NCBI GenBank assembly: GCA_963798085.1 | Contig: CAWCRS010000007.1 | Coordinates: 1,120,001-1,184,000 of the forward strand | DNA from: an uncultured Gemmatimonadales bacterium | GTDB taxonomy: Bacteria > Gemmatimonadota > Gemmatimonadetes > Longimicrobiales > RSA9 | Direction: 5' to 3' | DNA: 64,000 nt | In this document: positions 13,340 to 33,219 of the stretch, piece after piece | Position numbering within the stretch: the first letter of the stretch is position 1 | How the letters are laid out: each line of letters begins with the position of its first letter | The notes under the pieces: generated by a model | The model's database searches: none | Seen by the model: the letters and a program-made list of their open reading frames with translations, nothing else | What the model was told of the DNA's origin: nothing | Program-made: the position numbers and the translations under genes

Positions 13340-14716
13340 ATGAGTGAAGACAGGATAAGGGTGGCGTCGGGGCAGGGGTTCTGGGGGGATCTGCTCAGCG
13401 CGCCGGTGGATCAGGTGCGGGGTGGACCCATCGACTACCTCATGCTCGACTACCTCGCCGAAGTCACCATGTCGATCATGCAGAAACAGCGGGCGCGGGA
13501 CGCGACGCAGGGGTATGCTCGCGATTTTGTGCCGCTGATGCGCGAAATCCTGCCGGACTGCGCGCAGAAGAACATCCGCGTCGTGGCCAATGCGGGCGGT
13601 GTGAATCCGCGCGGCTGCGCGGAGCGCGTCCTGGAGCAGGCCAGGCAGGCGGGGCTCGCGGGGCAGGTGAAGGTGGGCGTCATCACCGGTGATGACATCA
13701 TGGAGCGGCTGCCGGACCTGCTGGCGCGCGGACACGCGTTGCAGAACCTGGATGACGGCCGGCCGCTGTCCGAAGTGCTGGATCGTGTGCAGAGCGCCAA
13801 TGCCTACATCGGCGCGCGCCCGATCGTGGAAGCGCTGCGTCGTGATGCGACTGTCGTGATAACAGGGCGTTCGACGGACACGGCGCTGACCTACGCGCCC
13901 ATGATCCACGCCTTCGGCTGGGCGGAGGACGACTGGGACCGGCTGGCGGCGGGCGTGGTCGCCGGTCACATCAACGAGTGCGGTGCGCAGGCCAGTGGCG
14001 GCAACTCGCTCATCGGCTGGCCCACCATCACCGACCTCGAGAGCGTCGGCTTCCCCATCATTGAAGCCAGCGCCAATGGCAGCTTTGTCGTTACCAAGCA
14101 CGACCACACTGGCGGGCGCATCGACCGCGCCATTGTCAGCGAGCAGGTGCTCTACGAGCTGGGCAACCCCGCCGAGTACATCACGCCCGATGTCATTGCC
14201 GACTTCGGCACCATCCGGCTCCAGGATGCGGGCACGAATCGCGTGCGCGTGCACGGCGTGAAAGGCCGGCCGCGTACCGACCGGCTCAAGGTGTCCATTT
14301 CCTATCACGCCGGTTACAAGGCAGTGGGCACTCTCGTTTACGGCTGGCCCAATGCCGTGGCCAAAGCCCAGGAAGCGGATCGCATCCTGCGCGCCCGCCT
14401 CGACCGCCTGGGTCTCGAGTTCAATGAAGTGCGCACGGAATTCGTCGGCTGGAACGCGTGCCACGGCGCGCTCGCAGGACCGCCACCGCGCGACCTGCCC
14501 GAAGTCGAATTCCGCATTGCCGTACGCGGGCCCGACCAGAAAGCGGTCGAAGCCTTCACGCGCGAGCTGGCGCCCCTCGTACTCACCGGTCCGCCCACCG
14601 TGACCGGCTTCGCCGGCGGCCGCCCGCACGTCCAGGAAATCGTCGCCTACTGGCCCGCGCTCATCGACCGCACCGTAATCGAGCCGGGTCTCGGCGTGGA
14701 CGTCATCACCGCTTGA
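13340..14716 (+). CDS. atuA: Acyclic terpene utilization AtuA family protein (DUF1446)
   Basis: IRVASGQGFWGD, DYLAEVTM, NAGGVNP, NAYIGA, ITGR.D, AGHINECG, EQVLYE and YITPDV motifs. Confidence 0.9.
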   Translation: MSEDRIRVASGQGFWGDLLSAPVDQVRGGPIDYLMLDYLAEVTMSIMQKQRARDATQGYARDFVPLMREILPDCAQKNIRVVANAGGVNPRGCAERVLEQARQAGLAGQVKVGVITGDDIMERLPDLLARGHALQNLDDGRPLSEVLDRVQSANAYIGARPIVEALRRDATVVITGRSTDTALTYAPMIHAFGWAEDDWDRLAAGVVAGHINECGAQASGGNSLIGWPTITDLESVGFPIIEASANGSFVVTKHDHTGGRIDRAIVSEQVLYELGNPAEYITPDVIADFGTIRLQDAGTNRVRVHGVKGRPRTDRLKVSISYHAGYKAVGTLVYGWPNAVAKAQEADRILRARLDRLGLEFNEVRTEFVGWNACHGALAGPPPRDLPEVEFRIAVRGPDQKAVEAFTRELAPLVLTGPPTVTGFAGGRPHVQEIVAYWPALIDRTVIEPGLGVDVITA

Positions 14717-22008: not shown

Positions 22009-22099
22009 TACGGCGTCGCAGGCGACGCGTGCCGGGGATTCACCGGTACGGGTGTGCCCGCGCGACCGATCCGCGTTCCGGCCTCGCGTTCCGGTAACC

Positions 22100-23641
22100 A
22101 TGAAACGTGAGATCCTGATTTCGGCCACGCCGCAGGAAACGCGGGTGGCCATCCTCGAGGACAACGTCCTGGTCGAGTTGATGATCGACCAGCCCGACAG
22201 CGAGCGACTCGTCGGCGACGTCTACCTCGGCCAGGTCCAGGCTGTGCTGCCCGGCATCCAGGCAGCCTTCGTCGATATCGGCACCGAGAAGGCGGCGTTC
22301 CTGCACGTCTCGGATGTCGCCCGCGACGATGACGAAGACGAGGAGGCTGAAGGTGGTGGCGGTGGAGGCAATGACGCCGACGCACGCTCCCGTCGGTATC
22401 CGCCCATCCAGGACCTGATCGAGAAAGGCGAGAAGCTGCTGGTCCAGGCCTCCAAGGAGCCGATCGGCACCAAGGGCCCCCGCGTCACCACGCACATCTC
22501 GCTGCCCGGCCGGTTCCTCGTCTTCATGCCCGGCTCCGACCACATCGGCGTCAGCCGCAAGATCGAAGGCAGGGAGGAGCGCGGCCGCCTGCGGGCGATC
22601 GCCCGCGAAGCCGTTCCCGAAGGCAGCGGCGGCGTCATCATCCGCACGGCCGGCGAGGAACTGACGCGCGAGGTGTTCGAGCGCGAGTTCAACACGCTCA
22701 CGGAAACCTGGAAGAAGATCCAGAAGCGCTCGAAGGGCGCGCGGCCGCCCGCCCTCATCCACCGTGAAGCCAAGCTGACCTCCGGCATCATCCGCGACGT
22801 GTTCACGCAGCGCGTCGACGCACTGATCGTCGACAGCAAGCAGGTGAACAACGAAATCCGCACGTACCTCGAGGGTGTGGATCCGACGCTGGTCGAGCGC
22901 GTGCACCTCTACGCGGATCCCGTCCCGCTCTTCGACAAGTATGGCGTCGAGGATGCCATCCGGCAGGCGTTCCAGCGGCGCGTCGATCTGCCTTCGGGCG
23001 GCTACATCATCATCGAACCCACCGAGGCGCTCGTCTCCATCGACGTCAACACCGGCCGCTACACCGGTCGCAAGGATCCCGAGAAGACCATCCTGCGCAC
23101 CAACCTCGATGCGGCGAGGGAAATCGCGCGCCAGCTGCGCCTGCGTGATGTCGGCGGCATCATCGTCGCCGACTTCATCGACATGGAAACGCGCTCCAAC
23201 CAGGAGCGCGTGCTGCAGGAGCTGCGCACGCACCTGAACCGCGATCGCGCCCGCACACGCGCCTTCCAGGTCTCCGAGCTGGGTCTCGTCGAGATGACGC
23301 GCCAGCGCGTGCGCCCATCGCTCTTCCACACCCTGACCGAGCCCTGTTCGCACTGCGGCGGCAGCGGCCGCGTATTCCGGCCTGACACCGTGTTACGCCG
23401 CATCGAACGCGCCGCCCGCCGTATCGCCGTCACCCAGGCCGAGTCCGACATCACGGTGCGCGTGCACCCCGAGGTCGCACTCTACATCCTCGAACAGGAG
23501 CCCGACTTCCTGCGTCGCATGCACCGTTCCCTGCGCATGTCCATGGACCTCCGCGACGACCCGCTCATGCGCCAGGACGAGTTCCGACTGCTGGCCGGCA
23601 CGGCCGAGAACGACATCACCGAGAAGTATGCGCTGGGCTGA
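22100..23641 (+). CDS. rng: Ribonuclease G (Rne/Rng family)
   Basis: S1 domain VLPGIQAAFVDIG, KEPIGTKGPR, IDVNTG, RQLRLRDVGGIIVADFIDM and CxxC. Confidence 0.93.
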   Translation: MKREILISATPQETRVAILEDNVLVELMIDQPDSERLVGDVYLGQVQAVLPGIQAAFVDIGTEKAAFLHVSDVARDDDEDEEAEGGGGGGNDADARSRRYPPIQDLIEKGEKLLVQASKEPIGTKGPRVTTHISLPGRFLVFMPGSDHIGVSRKIEGREERGRLRAIAREAVPEGSGGVIIRTAGEELTREVFEREFNTLTETWKKIQKRSKGARPPALIHREAKLTSGIIRDVFTQRVDALIVDSKQVNNEIRTYLEGVDPTLVERVHLYADPVPLFDKYGVEDAIRQAFQRRVDLPSGGYIIIEPTEALVSIDVNTGRYTGRKDPEKTILRTNLDAAREIARQLRLRDVGGIIVADFIDMETRSNQERVLQELRTHLNRDRARTRAFQVSELGLVEMTRQRVRPSLFHTLTEPCSHCGGSGRVFRPDTVLRRIERAARRIAVTQAESDITVRVHPEVALYILEQEPDFLRRMHRSLRMSMDLRDDPLMRQDEFRLLAGTAENDITEKYALG

Positions 23642-23691
23642 CGGGCCGTTTCTGGGGCTGGGGCTCGGGCTCAGGCAACAGATCTGACGGC

Positions 23692-23730
23692 GTTGCTCGG
23701 GCTGGTTGCTGGGGATGGTTGCTCAGGACC
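23692..23730. repeat. 13-bp tandem repeat x3
   Basis: GTTGCTCGGGCTG / GTTGCTGGGGATG / GTTGCTCAGGACC. Confidence 0.55.
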
Positions 23731-24595
23731 GGCTTGAAGAACAGGTGCAGATTGCCCCCGAACGGGTGAGATTCTGCTGCTGGTAGTGGGTCAATTTGAG
23801 CCGTGACAAAGCGCCTCGCTCCCTACATTCTACTGAGGTCCCGACCACACTCCCCGGGGGTAGAATGGAACAGCGGGCGTACAGCTCAGCAGAGATGAAG
23901 ATCAACATTCGGTATTCCGGTCCCGGCCCCGAACGAGGCCGTATGAGCGTGGTCGAACTTGGCCCCGCCATGATCGGTCTCGGCCAAATGGTGGGAGGGG
24001 CGAGCCGCATACTGTATGGCGACGAGGCGCGAGTACAGGTTGAGGTTCACGCGAATTTCCGAAGAGCATTGTTTGGGGTCGATTTCTTCGCTGTTTCGTC
24101 ACAGGTTGGATTGCTTCCACCACTGGATCTACCAAGCCTGGCGGCGATTGCGACCCTGATAGGAGTAGGGGGCGGCGCCGTAAAGGGGCTAATACAGCTC
24201 GTCCGTTGGCAACGCGGACGGCGAATTGATCGGGTTGGAACTGATGGAGACCTGATTCAGATTCAGATCAACAATGAGGTTCAGGAAGTCACGGTGAATC
24301 AATATCGCATTCTTATCGATCCGGATGCACGAAAGGGACTCGGGGCCTTGGTTTCGCCCTTGACTACCGATGATGTGGATCTTGTGGAGCTTCAGAAGGA
24401 GGACGATCCTCCCATAGTCATCCCCTCAAATGAAGCAGCGTCGTTCACATCATCGCCGCTACCTGAACAGGAGATCTCCATTCGATAGCTACACCACGGT
24501 CCTCGAAGTCGTGGCGGTGACCTTCCGCGAGCGGAACAAATGGCGCTTCTCCCAAGGGGGCAACACATTCTACGCCGAGATCACGGATGAGGATT

Positions 24596-26056
24596 TGGAC
24601 CTGTCCCGATTCCGTGGACGGTTGAGTGTTTGGGTTGCCTGCTGCCGGCGCATGGCAATCCGTTCTGCTGTTGTTGATATGATGGATCCGTTTGCTGCCT
24701 GGGGTCCGAGCGAAGGCGAGGAGACCGCGCACGGCGCGGCCGCCCGCGGAAGGTGCCTTGTCGCGAGCCTCCAGAATCGCGTGTACGGGCCGGGAGCGGC
24801 CGGGAAGGTATCCCAGCACCCCCCGAATCGGCGGTGCGTGCGACTCACGCGGCTGACCCATGCAGTCGCTCGAAGTTCATGGGTGAGCGTTGACCCAGCG
24901 CAGAATGGCGCCGGTGCGGATTGTACCAGCCTTCGATGAAATGGAACACCGCTGTTTCGGCTTCCGCCGGCGTGCGAAAGCGGTAGCGGTCGAGCAACTC
25001 GCACTCGAGCGTGGCAAAGAAGCTTTCGCACAGCGCGTTGTCGTAGCAGTCGCCCACGCTGCCCATCGAGGGACGCACGCCGGCCTCGCGACAACGCTGA
25101 CCAAATGCCAGCGACGTGTACTGACTGCCCTGATCGGAGTGATGGATCACGGCGTGCGGACGCCGCTGCATGAGCGCCATGTTCATCGCCGCCACTACCA
25201 GTTCACTGCGCAGGTGTGTGGCCATGGCCCAGCCCACCACCCGTCGACTCCACACGTCCACCACCACCGCCAGATACAGCATCCCGCTCCAGGTCGAAAT
25301 GTACGTGATGTCGGCCACCCAGAGCTGATCCGGCCCCGTCGCCTTGAACTGACGGTCCACCAGATCCGGTGCCGGTCGGCTGTCCGCATCGCGCACGGTC
25401 GTGACTACCTTGCGTCGACGGCTTACGCCTTCCAGCCCTTCTTCCCGCATCAGGCGGCCCACGCGCTTGGGGGACACCGCCTCACCGTCATCCTGCAACT
25501 CCGCGTGCACACGCGGGCGGCCGTACGTCCCGTCCGACCGCTCGTGGATCTCGCGTATGCGCTGTTTCAACTGCGCGTCGCGCTCGGCTCGCGCCGACGC
25601 CCGACGCTCGAACCATGCATAGTACCCGCTGGTGGAGACCTCCAGCACGCGGCACATGGTGGCAATCGGATACATGGCCTGGTGGGCTCTCACGAATCGG
25701 TAGACCTCGACGGCACCGCATTCGGTCTCCCGAGCGAACCAGGCCGCGGCTTTTGCCAGGATCTCCCGCTCGACGCGCAACTGCTTGTTCTCGCGCCGCA
25801 GCCGCTTCAGCTCCGCCAGCTCCTCGCTGGTCGGCCCTTCACGGCGGCCCGCATCCCGATCCGCCTGCTTCACCCAGTTGCGAAGTGACTGCTCCGACAC
25901 CTTGAATTCCTTCGCCAGCTCTCCGATCGAGCGACCCGCCCGGGCCAGGTCGATAAGCCGACTACGGAATTCCAAGGGATACGACCGTCGTTTCGACATT
26001 GTGGACTCCTTTCTCTACCCAAGAGAGTAAGTGTCCACGAAACCGGGTCAACTCCA
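24596..26056 (-). mobile_element. IS3-family insertion sequence, 1461 bp
   Basis: TG...CA ends; 24-bp IRs with 19/24 identity; GATGAGGATT duplicated at 24586-24595 and 26057-26066. Confidence 0.93.
24845..25999 (-). CDS. IS3-family transposase (OrfA HTH and OrfB integrase core in one frame)
   Basis: LRNWVKQ and ELKRLRRENKQL; DDE triad WVADITY / HHSDQGSQY / DNALCESFF. Confidence 0.95.
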   Translation of the reverse strand: MSKRRSYPLEFRSRLIDLARAGRSIGELAKEFKVSEQSLRNWVKQADRDAGRREGPTSEELAELKRLRRENKQLRVEREILAKAAAWFARETECGAVEVYRFVRAHQAMYPIATMCRVLEVSTSGYYAWFERRASARAERDAQLKQRIREIHERSDGTYGRPRVHAELQDDGEAVSPKRVGRLMREEGLEGVSRRRKVVTTVRDADSRPAPDLVDRQFKATGPDQLWVADITYISTWSGMLYLAVVVDVWSRRVVGWAMATHLRSELVVAAMNMALMQRRPHAVIHHSDQGSQYTSLAFGQRCREAGVRPSMGSVGDCYDNALCESFFATLECELLDRYRFRTPAEAETAVFHFIEGWYNPHRRHSALGQRSPMNFERLHGSAA

Positions 26057-26277
26057 GATGAGGATTTTCTGCGACGGGTGTCACAGCGCAATGAGACTTT
26101 CGGCGCTGGCGATGCCCTTCAATGTAACGTGGAGCTTAGAACGTCGTCCACGGCGGATGGCTTTCGGTTCGAGCACCGCATTCTGAGGGTATTACAACAC
26201 ATCCGGGCGGACCAAGGCGGGCAACTTCCGATGCTTTGATACTTGTCCGATCACTACCGCTTTCCTACCTTTAGCTC

Positions 26278-26547
26278 ATGCCAAAGCGCAAAAGCATCAA
26301 ACCCAGCAATGACCCCAACCTGCGCGCATTCCGGGTTGCGGAGGCCGCGACTGCGGAGAAACCGGAGGCCGAAACGCCGGAGCCTCCCCGCAGAAAGAAC
26401 CCCCATGCCGTCCGGCTCGGCCAGCTCGGCGGGAAGAAGGGCGGCAAGCGCCGCCTCGAAACGATGACGCCGGAGCAACGATCTGACGCGGCCCGGAAGG
26501 CCGCCCAAGCTCGCTGGAAGAATAAGGGTCGAGATACCAAGAATTGA
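26278..26547 (+). CDS. Small basic protein of the KNPxAVxLGxLGGxKGG type
   Basis: KNPHAVRLGQLGGKKGGKRRLETMTPEQRSDAARKAAQARW; from recall, this type often lies beside IS1/IS1595-like transposases. Confidence 0.75.
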   Translation: MPKRKSIKPSNDPNLRAFRVAEAATAEKPEAETPEPPRRKNPHAVRLGQLGGKKGGKRRLETMTPEQRSDAARKAAQARWKNKGRDTKN

Positions 26548-26572
26548 CAGTTTCCCTCCGCTGGGAAGAAGA

Positions 26573-26606
26573 AAAGCACCGTACAGTATATACTGTACGG
26601 TGCTTT
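26573..26606. repeat. Perfect 34-bp palindrome
   Basis: AAAGCACCGTACAGTATATACTGTACGGTGCTTT equals its own reverse complement. Confidence 0.9.
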
Positions 26607-26773
26607 CTTGTCCATACTGGACTGAAACCAAAGATTTATGGCCCAACGGATGGTCGGGGTTGAAGGGACTGGTCCTGTGTCCATCGATTTGCGGCCCTGT
26701 CGGATGAGCGACGGCCATATTAAATTGCCTCGGACAGAACGCTGTACGCGCGTCACAAAATGGGTAATCTGCC

Positions 26774-27220
26774 ATGACAACGATTGATGATCTCGTCCAG
26801 TCTATCGACAGGCGCTTGCATGAGATCGATTTGGAGCGCCAGGAACTGCTGCGCTTTCGCACAATCTACGTTTCAACGCAACGCGAGCTACCGATGCCTG
26901 ATAACGTCACTGTTATTGAGTCCCATGCGCCGACAGATGATGGAATCTCTCCCCGCAGGAATGGCGCCGGGCCGAGTCAGGCTATTATCGAAGTGTTAGG
27001 AGTGAGCGCCAAGTCATTGAAGGCAAGCGAGCTGATCGACCGTGTAGTAGAACGTGTGGGTCACACGAGATCCACGGATGAGCGTCGTCAGCGCCGGACA
27101 ATTTCGTCCGTTCTTGCCTACCTCGTGAAGAGAAAGCGCGTGGTTCGTCGTGGATCGAGATATTCGCTACCCAAGGAAGGGGAAGGCGGTGCGATGCAGG
27201 ACCGCCCTATTGAGCGTTAG
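26774..27220 (+). CDS. Hypothetical protein, N-terminal coiled coil and probable C-terminal winged helix
   Basis: IDRRLHEIDLERQELL heptads; AIIEVL...LKASELIDRV...ISSVLAYLVKRKRVVRRGSRYSL pattern. Confidence 0.6.
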   Translation: MTTIDDLVQSIDRRLHEIDLERQELLRFRTIYVSTQRELPMPDNVTVIESHAPTDDGISPRRNGAGPSQAIIEVLGVSAKSLKASELIDRVVERVGHTRSTDERRQRRTISSVLAYLVKRKRVVRRGSRYSLPKEGEGGAMQDRPIER

Positions 27221-27236
27221 AGGCTCAATAGGGCGG
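27202..27236 (+). terminator. Perfect 14-bp stem hairpin (terminator-like, weak U tract)
   Basis: CCGCCCTATTGAGC-GTTAGAG-GCTCAATAGGGCGG spanning the stop codon. Confidence 0.55.
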
Positions 27237-27249
27237 GTTCGCTGAGTGG

Positions 27250-27285
27250 GGGCCAGTAGCTCAATGGGAGGAGCGCCGGCTTGAC
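27250..27285 (+). pseudogene. tRNA 5' half (acceptor strand, D-arm, anticodon 5' strand; possibly Val-GAC)
   Basis: GGGCCAG-TA-GCTC-AATGGGAG-GAGC-G-CCGGC-TT-GAC; no matching 3' half or T-arm follows. Confidence 0.6.
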
Positions 27286-27944
27286 GAGATCTGGAGTTTC
27301 GCGGGCTGCAAGGACCGGCGCGTGCCGGTCGAGGAGCAAGGGCAGGCCGGGGCGACGTGTGGACCTGGACGGCGCTCGATCAGGATTCCAAGCTCATAGT
27401 GGCGTATCGGGTCGGGAACCGTGACCCCAAGACGGGCCATGCCTTCATTCAGGATCTCCATGACCGGCTGTCCTCGCGCGTGCAGCTTACGACCGACGGC
27501 CTCACGATCTACCTGACCGCCGTGGAGCGAGCCTTCGGTTGGGGTCAGGTCGATTACGCCATGCTGATCAAGCTGTACGGTCACAGCCCGGACGGGGAGG
27601 AGAACCGCCGCTACAGCCCCGCCGTCTGCGTCGGGACGCGCAAGGAGCCGATCATGGGCCGCCCGGAAGAGGCCGACGTTTGCACGTCGCATGTGGAGCG
27701 GCAGAACCTGACGATGCGGATGCAGATGCGGCGCTTCACGCGCCTGACCAACGCGTTCTCAAAGAAGGTGGAAAACCACCTGTACGCGGTGGCGCTGCAC
27801 TTCATGCACTACAACTTCTGCCGCCCGCATCAGACGCTCACACGCGCGAACCGGGGTATCCATACGACGCCAGCGATGGCGGCCGGGCTCACGAACCGCG
27901 TGTGGACGATGGAGGACATTCTGAATTTGTTACACGGTGACTGA
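27280..27944 (+). pseudogene. IS1-family-like DDE transposase, N-terminus deleted, frameshift near 27347
   Basis: [65 protein letters not shown]; upstream in-frame stop at 27229 and no start codon. Confidence 0.85.
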
Positions 27945-27967
27945 CCCACTACCTGCTGCTCGAGGGG

Positions 27968-27996
27968 TTGACGGAAGGGGGCCGCGCCGTCAAAAT
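27968..27996 (+). promoter_or_regulatory. Putative sigma70 promoter of rplU-rpmA
   Basis: TTGACG-N17-CAAAAT; overlapping inverted repeat TTGACGG...CCGTCAA. Confidence 0.5.
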
Positions 27997-31704: not shown

Positions 31705-33219
31705 TCAGTCGGCGGCGGCCACGGCGTCTGTCGGACCAGCGGTGGCGCCGGCGGCGTCGTCGTCCGACATGAAGTCCGCGACGTGCGCCACCGCCTGCGG
31801 CTGCGTCAGCAGGCTCACGACCACCAGCAACACGACATTAACAATGACGCCCAGAATGCCTTCGTGGATCTGGAACGGTCGCAGCCCCTGCCGGAAGACG
31901 AAGAAGAGCGCCGTCGCCATGCCGCCGAAGAGACCGGCCAGCACGCCCGCCGTGGTGGCGCGCTTCCAGTAGAGCGCCGCGTAGACAGGCGGTGCCAGCT
32001 GGTCGACGAACGCGTAGGCCGTGAGCAGCAGCACCACCAGATTGGGCCGCGCAACCACGGCCAGGAAGTAGGCCAGCAGTCCAAAGACCACCACCAGCAA
32101 CTGCATGAGATGGCGGCGCAGGCTTTCCCTGATGCGGAGGAACGGTGCCACGCCATCCTCGATGGTGATCGAACCGGCCGCGTGCAGCAGTGCATCGCCC
32201 GTCGACATGGAAGCCGCCAGCGCGCCCGCGCAGAACAGGCCGACAACGACTGCGGGCATGCCCGACTGCAGCAGCACGTGCGGCAGAATGAAGTCGGCCG
32301 TGGCCGGCCGCGGCGTGAACAACACGCCCGCGAAGCCCACCAGCAGCAGCGGAATCAGGAACAGCTGGAATGTCGGATAGAGCACCACGGTGCGCCGCAG
32401 CGTGCGATCGTCGCGCGCATTGAACGCCTTCATGAACAGGTGCGGCCACACCACGAAGCCCAGCGCCGAGGAGAGGATCGCCGTGGAGTAGGCGCCCCAG
32501 CTCCAGGTATGGCCCGCCGCATCGAGTCCGGGCAGCAGCAGCATCTCGGGGCGCGCGGCCGCTATGCGCTGGAACATGGGGCCAACGCCGCCGTACAGCG
32601 CGTGCGGCACATACAGTCCCAGGCCCCACGCCACCGCGATCATGATGGCGCCCTCGAACACGTTGGTCCATCCCACCGCCGAGGCGCCGCCGATGAGCAC
32701 GTACAGCACCACCACGAAGTAGGACAGCGCCGCGCCCGCCCAGAACGGAATGTGATTCGCCGTCACCGCGCTGAAGACGATGCCCGCGCCGCTCATCTGC
32801 AGCATGATGTAGGGAATGAACGAGCCCACGGCAATGACGGCCATGAGGAGAGAAAGCGCGCGACTGGGGAAACGCCCTGTTACCAGCTGCGCCTGCGTCA
32901 CGAATCCCTTGCGCCGGCCCAGCCTCGCCGTGCGCGGGCCCACGAAATACCAGGGCGAAACGCCCAGCACGCCGTAGCTCAGGATGTAGAGCACCGCCAC
33001 GCCCCGGGAATACGCCCAGCCCGGTCCGCCCAGGAACGCGAACGCGCTGAAGACCGTGCCGCCGATCACGAAATACATGGACAGCAGACCGAAGCGCCGG
33101 TCTGCAGCCACGTAGCCCGTGACGCCGTGGCTCACCCTGCGGCCTGCTAACAGCCCGATACCCAGGGCCAGCACCAGGTAGCCCAGCACGATCGTCGTGA
33201 TCAGCTGCCAGCGTTCCAT
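31705..33219 (-). CDS. Sodium:solute symporter family protein
   Basis: FSAFAFLGGPGWAY, AGALAASMST, ATTAGVLAG; many TM helices. Confidence 0.9.
   Translation of the reverse strand: MERWQLITTIVLGYLVLALGIGLLAGRRVSHGVTGYVAADRRFGLLSMYFVIGGTVFSAFAFLGGPGWAYSRGVAVLYILSYGVLGVSPWYFVGPRTARLGRRKGFVTQAQLVTGRFPSRALSLLMAVIAVGSFIPYIMLQMSGAGIVFSAVTANHIPFWAGAALSYFVVVLYVLIGGASAVGWTNVFEGAIMIAVAWGLGLYVPHALYGGVGPMFQRIAAARPEMLLLPGLDAAGHTWSWGAYSTAILSSALGFVVWPHLFMKAFNARDDRTLRRTVVLYPTFQLFLIPLLLVGFAGVLFTPRPATADFILPHVLLQSGMPAVVVGLFCAGALAASMSTGDALLHAAGSITIEDGVAPFLRIRESLRRHLMQLLVVVFGLLAYFLAVVARPNLVVLLLTAYAFVDQLAPPVYAALYWKRATTAGVLAGLFGGMATALFFVFRQGLRPFQIHEGILGVIVNVVLLVVVSLLTQPQAVAHVADFMSDDDAAGATAGPTDAVAAAD

Follow-up and report, generated by a model that had tools for sequence, protein, structure and literature searches.

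A probable 5′ half of a tRNA-like passenger gene joined to the transposase remnant of an IS1-family cargo transposon in an uncultured Gemmatimonadales bacterium

A stretch of 64,000 nucleotides from contig CAWCRS010000007.1 of an uncultured Gemmatimonadales bacterium (GenBank assembly GCA_963798085.1), called the window below, carries a transposon of 4,172 bp at positions 23782–27953, bounded by terminal inverted repeats (IRs) and an apparent 7-bp target duplication. Its transposase gene, of the insertion sequence (IS) family IS1, has lost its beginning. The 33 nucleotides directly in front of the remaining gene, 27250–27282, are probably (we estimate about 0.8) what is left of a passenger gene resembling a tRNA, namely its 5′ half, fused to transposase codon 66 by an internal deletion. 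The features at the junction are as follows.

27202..27236, + strand: perfect 14-bp hairpin, 27202–27215 pairing with 27223–27236 around a 7-nt loop
27250..27282, + strand: tRNA-like 5′ half (the stump), positions 1–33, cut after U33; 3′-truncated match in Rfam
27283..27944, + strand: IS1-family transposase remnant without codons 1–65 (helix-turn-helix, HTH, domain), with a one-base frameshift at 27342–27345

The junction of the stump and the transposase

The stump reads GGGCCAG-TA-GCTC-AATGGGAG-GAGC-G-CCGGC-TT. It comprises a 7-nt acceptor strand, U8 and A9, a D stem of 4 bp (GCTC/GAGC), an 8-nt D loop with GG, position 26, a 5-nt anticodon-stem strand, and U32 and U33; the canonical features of a 5′ half are all present. 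It begins 12 bases after the hairpin, and the perfect hairpin followed by a canonical tRNA start with a GCTC/GAGC D arm, as described in the initial annotation, is confirmed by reading and folding. The minimum free energy of 27195–27300 is −46.8 kcal/mol (z = −3.0), and the hairpin dominates the fold. The hairpin loop contains the stop codon of an upstream open reading frame (ORF) of 148 amino acids (aa). No T-run follows the hairpin, and terminator prediction gives no terminator there. The genome holds no second copy of the stump or the hairpin.

The remnant matches PF03400 (DDE_Tnp_IS1) with 32.3 bits against a cut-off of 24.1, and its relative P0003 does so with 38.4 bits. The top NCBIfam match of P0003 is transpos_IS1, below the cut-off (66.3 vs 100). 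The remnant is 81% identical to P0003 over residues 88–286. Homology to full-length relatives starts at GAC, nt 27283, which encodes the D of DEIW. Full-length relatives (285–286 aa) read ...KRVQCDEIWSF..., where this D is residue 66. At 27342–27345 the frame changes from ...VPVEEQG to GRGDVWTWT.... The element is inactive: 65 codons are gone, the frame is shifted, and there is no other copy of the transposase in the genome.

The initial annotation had read an LDEIW motif across the junction, with a microhomology at CTTGAC. Of 135 relatives, 100 have C immediately before D, 18 have A, 10 have V and only 3 have L, and CTT is C31-U32-U33 of the tRNA. Since the L is not transposase sequence, a microhomology can not be demonstrated; at most 1–3 nt could overlap, the anticodon being lost. 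That the tRNA 3′ half and the transposase N-terminus are both missing holds: the acceptor 3′ strand CTGGCCC is absent throughout the element, as are codons 1–65.

A MAFFT placement that put the stump on transposase codons was rejected from identity counts. The stump shares only 8–15 of 33 positions with the 33 nt before the D codon in nine related elements that carry a class-I tRNA-like gene, and 22–25 of 33 with the 5′ halves of the nine tRNA-likes themselves. It had been held that the tRNA reading would fall if intact relatives had ordinary coding sequence at this place. They do have the 65 codons before DEIW, but the stump is not homologous to those codons.

Relatives carry a tRNA gene in the same slot

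The relatives comprise 80 listed loci from species-representative genomes and 80 from metagenomes, found by protein-guided scans (at least 160). Together with L002 and L003 they make 162 loci, among which at least nine pairs are near-identical duplicates. A second set holds 28 Gemmatimonadota loci from 401 genomes, with L189 left out. The relatives share a plan: left IR, a small gene for a protein with a KGG motif, variable cargo, transposase and right IR, with 8-bp duplications outside. The consensus end GGTAGTGGGTCAGTTTGAA, at up to 5 mismatches, lies upstream (+) and downstream (−) in 98 of the 162 loci. The lineage is widespread, being seen in Gemmatimonadota, Acidobacteriota, Alphaproteobacteria, Nitrospirota, Planctomycetota and others.

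ARAGORN finds a + strand tRNA ending 56–160 bp before the transposase ATG in 14 of the 162 loci and one more at 345 bp; 151 of the loci had at least 300 bp of upstream sequence. In the second set the slot is occupied in 5 of 28: L176 (two tRNAs), L179 (a duplicate of L011), L190, L195 and L186, whose tRNA-like was found by a covariance model with 22.3 bits. The cargo tRNA always lies just upstream of a conserved promoter/palindrome, TTGACA ATGCTTGAGCGCTCAAGCAT ATATT, which precedes the ATG. Seven tRNA-bearing elements have both IRs. Their duplications are perfect and 8 bp long in L034, L096, L170, L173, L176 and L186, and offset by one base in L044. The tRNA genes lie inside the IRs and duplications, and are thus cargo of the transposed unit.

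In the nine class-I carriers, tRNA position 34 and the D codon are 325–397 bp apart. One deletion of this length explains the missing tRNA 3′ half, the missing promoter and the missing 65 codons. The window element would once have carried a complete tRNA-like gene upstream of its transposase. A single illegitimate-recombination deletion of about 325–400 bp would have removed the tRNA 3′ half, the spacer of about 100 bp with the promoter/operator palindrome, and the 65 HTH-coding codons. The fusion would be a scar without function. The proposal of an intact element with a tRNA or tRNA-like gene ahead of its transposase, which then lost its middle by deletion, is thus supported by the complete same-strand genes of the relatives, which came to light in the search upstream of their transposases. 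Without its IS3 copy (see below) and with the deletion restored, the window element would measure about 3.05 kb; L096 is 3,046 bp long.

The junction at 27282/27283 is located within the anticodon loop, where some integrases cross over, and the initial annotation had offered an att-like scar as an alternative. A tyrosine- or serine-integrase element recombining in the loop would leave such a break. However, there is no integrase among the ORFs of 19.5–30 kb, by ORF reading and Pfam, and no part of the tRNA-like stump is repeated in the genome. Integrases duplicate 3′ parts, whereas here a 5′ part is joined to the interior of a transposase gene, inside an IS. We reject an att scar as extremely improbable. 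An assembly chimera of two unrelated pieces would also give an abrupt junction at this place, the source assembly being a draft of 12 contigs (6.2 Mb, 90% completeness) from which alone the junction is known. Both sides of the junction lie in one IR-bounded element in the gene order of the relatives, which a random misjoin would not give, and a chimera has very little probability.

The cargo tRNAs of the relatives

Nine cargo tRNAs are class-I, of 74–77 nt with 7/5 stems, and have the anticodons GCU (5), ACU (3) and GUU (1); in this sub-lineage the class-I form with GCU or ACU is the most frequent cargo. In their alignment 99.5% of the cells of the cloverleaf are paired, and 16 of 21 pairs have changed on both sides. 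This covariation is reached by none of 500 shuffles, and slid controls score far lower. By these sequence criteria the class-I tRNA-likes form a real cloverleaf. Five members have a T-loop GGATCG.., with A and T in place of the usual T54 and A58. Compared with the tRNAs of the window's genome, tRNA-Arg(CCU) or tRNA-Arg(UCU) is the top or joint-top match for five of the nine. Bacterial tRNA-Ser is class II. A class-I body with a GCU or ACU anticodon is therefore no ordinary tRNA-Ser.

The other cargo tRNAs are long-arm forms with the anticodons UAG, UAU (2), UUA (2), UGG, UGC and CAA (2). Those of L131 and L170, which lie in the slot, are 90–91 nt long with the anticodon UAU. The two UUA forms, whose anticodon would pair with the stop codon UAA, have long variable arms and lie at 2428–2511 in L158 and, reverse-oriented, at 1276–1364 in L176. 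In L176 a second long-arm tRNA (CAA) adjoins the UUA one.

Strength of the tRNA match

When the stretch is cut at 27285, Rfam RF00005 matches the stump with 17.7 bits (E = 0.16) as 3′-truncated, over model positions 1–35 of 71. With a covariance model built from the cargo tRNAs of the relatives, the stump scores 16.7 bits (E = 0.25). A sequence-only hidden Markov model (HMM) of the 5′ 34 nt of 39 host tRNAs was run over the whole 6.2-Mb genome and gives the stump 9.8 bits. Rescaling its genome-wide E value to a one-strand slot of about 300 nt yields, by arithmetic, about 2e-4. Taken alone, the tRNA signal of the stump is marginal and weak. The stump is convincing because of its place and strand, in the slot where intact relatives hold a tRNA gene.

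Several observations weigh against a tRNA origin and a deletion. The Rfam score is below the gathering score of 29 and is obtained only with the cut at the junction; the tRNA model run over 26900–27600 uncut gives no match at E up to 10. ARAGORN reports no tRNA at the stump (its one tRNA in the window lies elsewhere), and position 21 of the stump is G where A is usual. In the host HMM search the E value of the stump is 9.2, and 11 non-tRNA places score higher. No parent can be singled out among the host and cargo tRNAs, the highest match being to a host tRNA-Asn on contig 10 (28/33). Only about 10–18% of related elements have a tRNA at the slot, most being without. Identity to the remnant among the matches listed is at most 69% in the genome and metagenome scans and at most 62% in the 401 Gemmatimonadota genomes. 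The closest relatives compared at the DNA level thus have only 59–69% protein identity, and the closer relatives P0002–P0012 (74–81%) are known as proteins only. Among the relatives compared there is no near-identical intact copy showing the state before a deletion. The junction itself, as said, is read from a draft assembly.

An ordinary spacer or decayed cargo could resemble a tRNA by chance in an element that never had one. The sub-threshold scores in every general detector, the higher-scoring non-tRNA places and the 85–90% or so of related elements with an empty slot all favor this. Yet the match runs in register across positions 1–33, including the pairing D stem, the GG and U33. It lies on the right strand in the single slot where relatives hold tRNAs, with the 22–25 of 33 identities to those genes, and the transposase is cut exactly where the tRNA match ends, as a single deletion predicts. 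Chance resemblance is therefore improbable.

The higher-scoring places include C1:245906–245931, C7:1510374–1510402, and 14143–14172 (−) and 32971–32996 (+) of the window, with 17.5, 14.4, 13.8 and 12.1 bits, respectively. These places could be further tRNA fragments or chance matches. About 24 tRNA genes, much of the genome's tRNA set, form an array within 3.7 kb of contig C5 (189593–193300).

Borders and insertion site of the element

The borders of the element and its neighbors are as follows.

22052..23641: RNase E/G gene, PF10150
23775..23781, no strand: left target-site duplication TGCTGCT, the same 7 nt standing directly after the right end
23782..23800, + strand: left terminal IR GGTAGTGGGTCAATTTGAG, its first 12 nt a perfect inverted copy of 27942–27953
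27935..27953, − strand: right terminal IR, overlapping the transposase stop codon
27954..27960, no strand: right target-site duplication TGCTGCT, a direct repeat of 23775–23781
27968..27996, + strand: native rplU promoter, outside the element (TTGACG, 17 nt, CAAAAT)

The 12-mer GGTAGTGGGTCA at 23782 and its inverted copy TGACCCACTACC at 27942–27953 match in 12 of 12 positions, and this pair is unique in the 6.2-Mb genome. The 19-mer GGTAGTGGGTCAATTTGAG at the left end is identical to the right end of L096. Ends of IS1 read GGnnnTG. Target duplications of the IS1 family measure about 8–9 bp; that of the window is of 7 identical nt in a CTG-repeat context, and of 8 only if offset by one base. 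From left to right the element consists of the left IR, a 207-aa ORF, an ORF split by an IS3 copy, the KGG gene, the 148-aa ORF, the hairpin, the tRNA stump, the truncated transposase and the right IR. The cargo ORFs, the KGG gene, the 148-aa ORF and the stump all lie inside 23782–27953.

A comparison of copies had pointed to a compact IS, a reading superseded by the IR-bounded units. Local alignment of 250 bp upstream of the ATG with the downstream flank gave no consistent IRs, because the left end lies 1–3 kb further out.

In related genomes the RNase E/G gene is directly followed by rplU and rpmA (DNA search, 20 genomes). The gap between RNase E/G and rplU is 4.4 kb in the window versus 110–338 bp in all four relatives with both genes on one locus. 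The rplU promoter starts 15 bp past the right end of the element, and a TTGAC...GTCTGT layout upstream of rplU is common to the window and L089–L092. Relative to the four related genomes, the element is an insertion between the RNase E/G gene and the rplU promoter.

The insertion site bears on whether the stump was a target and not cargo, namely a chromosomal tRNA gene struck by the IS and then partly deleted. Elements of the lineage do often adjoin host tRNA genes, as in L044, L162, L177, L188 and L192. Against this, the stump lies 3.5 kb inside the left IR, within the duplication-flanked unit. ARAGORN finds no tRNA between RNase E/G and rplU in five loci (L088–L092), so that the empty sites of the relatives offer none to strike, and no isoacceptor is missing from the host tRNA set. 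A struck chromosomal gene is very improbable.

Elements of the lineage (the five just named together with L186, L190 and L003) often stop shortly before host tRNA genes or clusters that are oriented as they are, with gaps of tens to a few hundred bp. Together with the end 15 bp before the rplU −35 box, this hints that strong promoters may be preferred at their upstream edge. Just behind the RNase E/G gene, some 95 bp (23643–23738) recur with 74–82% identity in at least ten further places of the genome, and look like a repetitive extragenic palindrome or a miniature inverted-repeat transposable element.

Cargo genes and the IS3 insertion

Between the left IR and the hairpin the element holds the following genes.

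23865..24488, + strand: cargo ORF of 207 aa, phrog_3243 (E = 2.1e-24, positions 7–201 of a 293-position profile)
24430..24595, + strand: 5′ part of the split cargo ORF, the frame being open on both sides of the IS3 copy
24596..26056, − strand: IS3-family insertion sequence, transposase ORF 24845–25999
26057..26239, + strand: 3′ part of the split cargo ORF, resuming beyond the IS3 copy
26278..26547, + strand: gene for a small basic KGG protein of 89 aa, a recurrent companion of the transposase lineage
26774..27220, + strand: cargo ORF of 148 aa, no family found, its stop codon in the hairpin loop

No Pfam family is found for the 207-aa ORF. The IS3 copy has two more, 100% identical, in the genome (C10:16994–18458 and C7:696231–697692), and its insertion and the frameshift add to the decay of the element. 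It is flanked by a 10-bp direct repeat, GATGAGGATT (24586–24595 and 26057–26066). IS3-family target duplications are 3–5 bp, shorter than the 10 bp seen. Part of the repeat may belong to the IS3 ends; the other two copies share 1–4 of its bases.

The KGG gene is the commonest companion of the transposase lineage and usually lies 60–100 bp inside the left IR. A homolog is found upstream on the transposase strand in 76 of the 162 loci and on the opposite strand only in 7. None is found in 79, of which 43 had at least 1.5 kb of upstream sequence. Among the matches listed, none downstream of the transposase is significant. The protein has the motif ..LG..GGKKGG..R...LTPEQR..AARKAAQARW and belongs to no Pfam or NCBIfam family; it weakly resembles phrog_2384 and the beginning of actinobacterial IHF (E = 0.014). 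The protein could help the transposon as an accessory factor that binds DNA. Between the KGG gene and the 148-aa ORF stands a perfect palindrome of 34 bp, AAAGCACCGTACAGTATATACTGTACGGTGCTTT (26573–26606), which matches itself in inverted orientation in the DNA search and is probably a two-way terminator. The 148-aa ORF has no significant likeness (E = 0.42) to the 161-aa ORF at the equivalent place in L002.

A possible role of the intact tRNA in decoding

The intact tRNA-like may have served the decoding of rare codons in the transposase gene, as a private decoder and not a passive passenger; this is our best guess at its role, although we hold it to be rather unlikely. The initial annotation had suggested that such a tRNA could act in anti-defence, as an integration decoy or as an RNA regulator. 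The element would then gate or tune its own transposase through the tRNA that it brings along, and the stump beside a transposase with AGU would be a relic of such a circuit. The eight transposase genes beside GCU or ACU tRNA-likes have 5, 0, 7, 6, 6, 2, 4 and 7 AGT codons. The total of 37 compares with about 7 expected (about 5-fold), and relatives matched for GC content at third codon positions average 0.3–2.3. ATA occurs 2 and 6 times in the transposase genes of the two UAU carriers, where the mean is 1.3, a weak signal.

Other counts run counter to a link of codon and supply. The carriers L016, L098 and L195 have few AGT codons, and L177, L188, L059 and L063 are AGT-rich without a tRNA, each with enough upstream sequence. 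L116 and L193 are also AGT-rich, their upstream sequence lying outside the data. The carriers are not independent, L011 and L044 being 71% identical and L095 and L162 64%. No ATA column is strongly fixed among the 135 transposase genes (at most 14/135). A recoding of AGU as Arg or Lys was considered, since column 37 of the HTH, where Lys/Arg is conserved, has AGT in 4 of the 8 GCU/ACU carriers versus none of 127 others, one of which has AGC. It was dropped in favor of the weaker idea of codon supply: L177 has AGT at column 37 without a tRNA-like in the slot, and 7 of the 8 carriers use AGY for the invariant Ser of YSP.

In the window, the codons AGT, ATA and TTA each occur once in the remnant, the AGU being at the S of DEIWSF. 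Neither these codons nor the 5′ half, which has no evident parent, reveal the lost anticodon. At the start of the transposase genes, the fourth codon (Leu of MNKL) is CTA in 22 and TTA in 15 of 135. From the sequences, such a rare fourth codon could throttle translation.

By itself the locus, a dead transposon next to the rplU promoter, is of little consequence; its value is as a pointer to the lineage. The lineage provides a tangible carrier by which tRNA genes can pass from genome to genome and into phages. It also presents a case, open to test, in which a mobile element may use decoding to control its own transposase.

Comparison with known systems

Genomic islands and prophages in tRNA genes also place a partial tRNA beside mobile DNA. 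They leave a duplicated 3′ part at an integrase-bearing border, whereas the 5′ part in the window lies deep inside a DDE transposon with no repeat.

ISfinder lists a passenger-carrying subgroup of IS1. IS derivatives with passenger genes are an accepted class and are termed transporter IS (tIS) (PMC9330008). The window element resembles tIS and IS1 in its DDE_Tnp_IS1 transposase, its short IRs starting with GGTAGTG and its passengers inside the repeats, and its relatives do so in their 8-bp target duplication. Unlike these, the lineage has a fixed tRNA slot upstream of the transposase promoter and a recurrent KGG gene near the left end, and the window copy is dead. Our literature search found no paper describing the tRNA slot or the KGG gene of IS1 cargo elements. 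On IS- or transposon-borne tRNAs it found nothing beyond a hint in Mukai et al. (PMC5389517).

From Edaphobacter C40, Mukai et al. (Nucleic Acids Res 2017, PMC5389517) report a pseudogene of an allo-tRNA(UAU) that overlaps an ORF related to transposons, and they place irregular tRNAs near transposons and toxin-antitoxin genes. The link with transposable elements is a guess there and in a review (PMC7609411); in the accessible text the element is not described and its family is not named. The window stump is alike in being a degenerate tRNA-like gene at a transposon ORF, and L131 and L170 carry UAU tRNAs. Allo-tRNAs have a long variable arm and a 12-bp acceptor branch split 8/4 or 9/3. The nine class-I tRNA-likes of the relatives differ from them, having 74–77 nt and 7/5 stems; the stump, a 5′ half, most resembles this class-I form. 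The lineage thus gives the irregular tRNAs of Mukai et al. a physical home.

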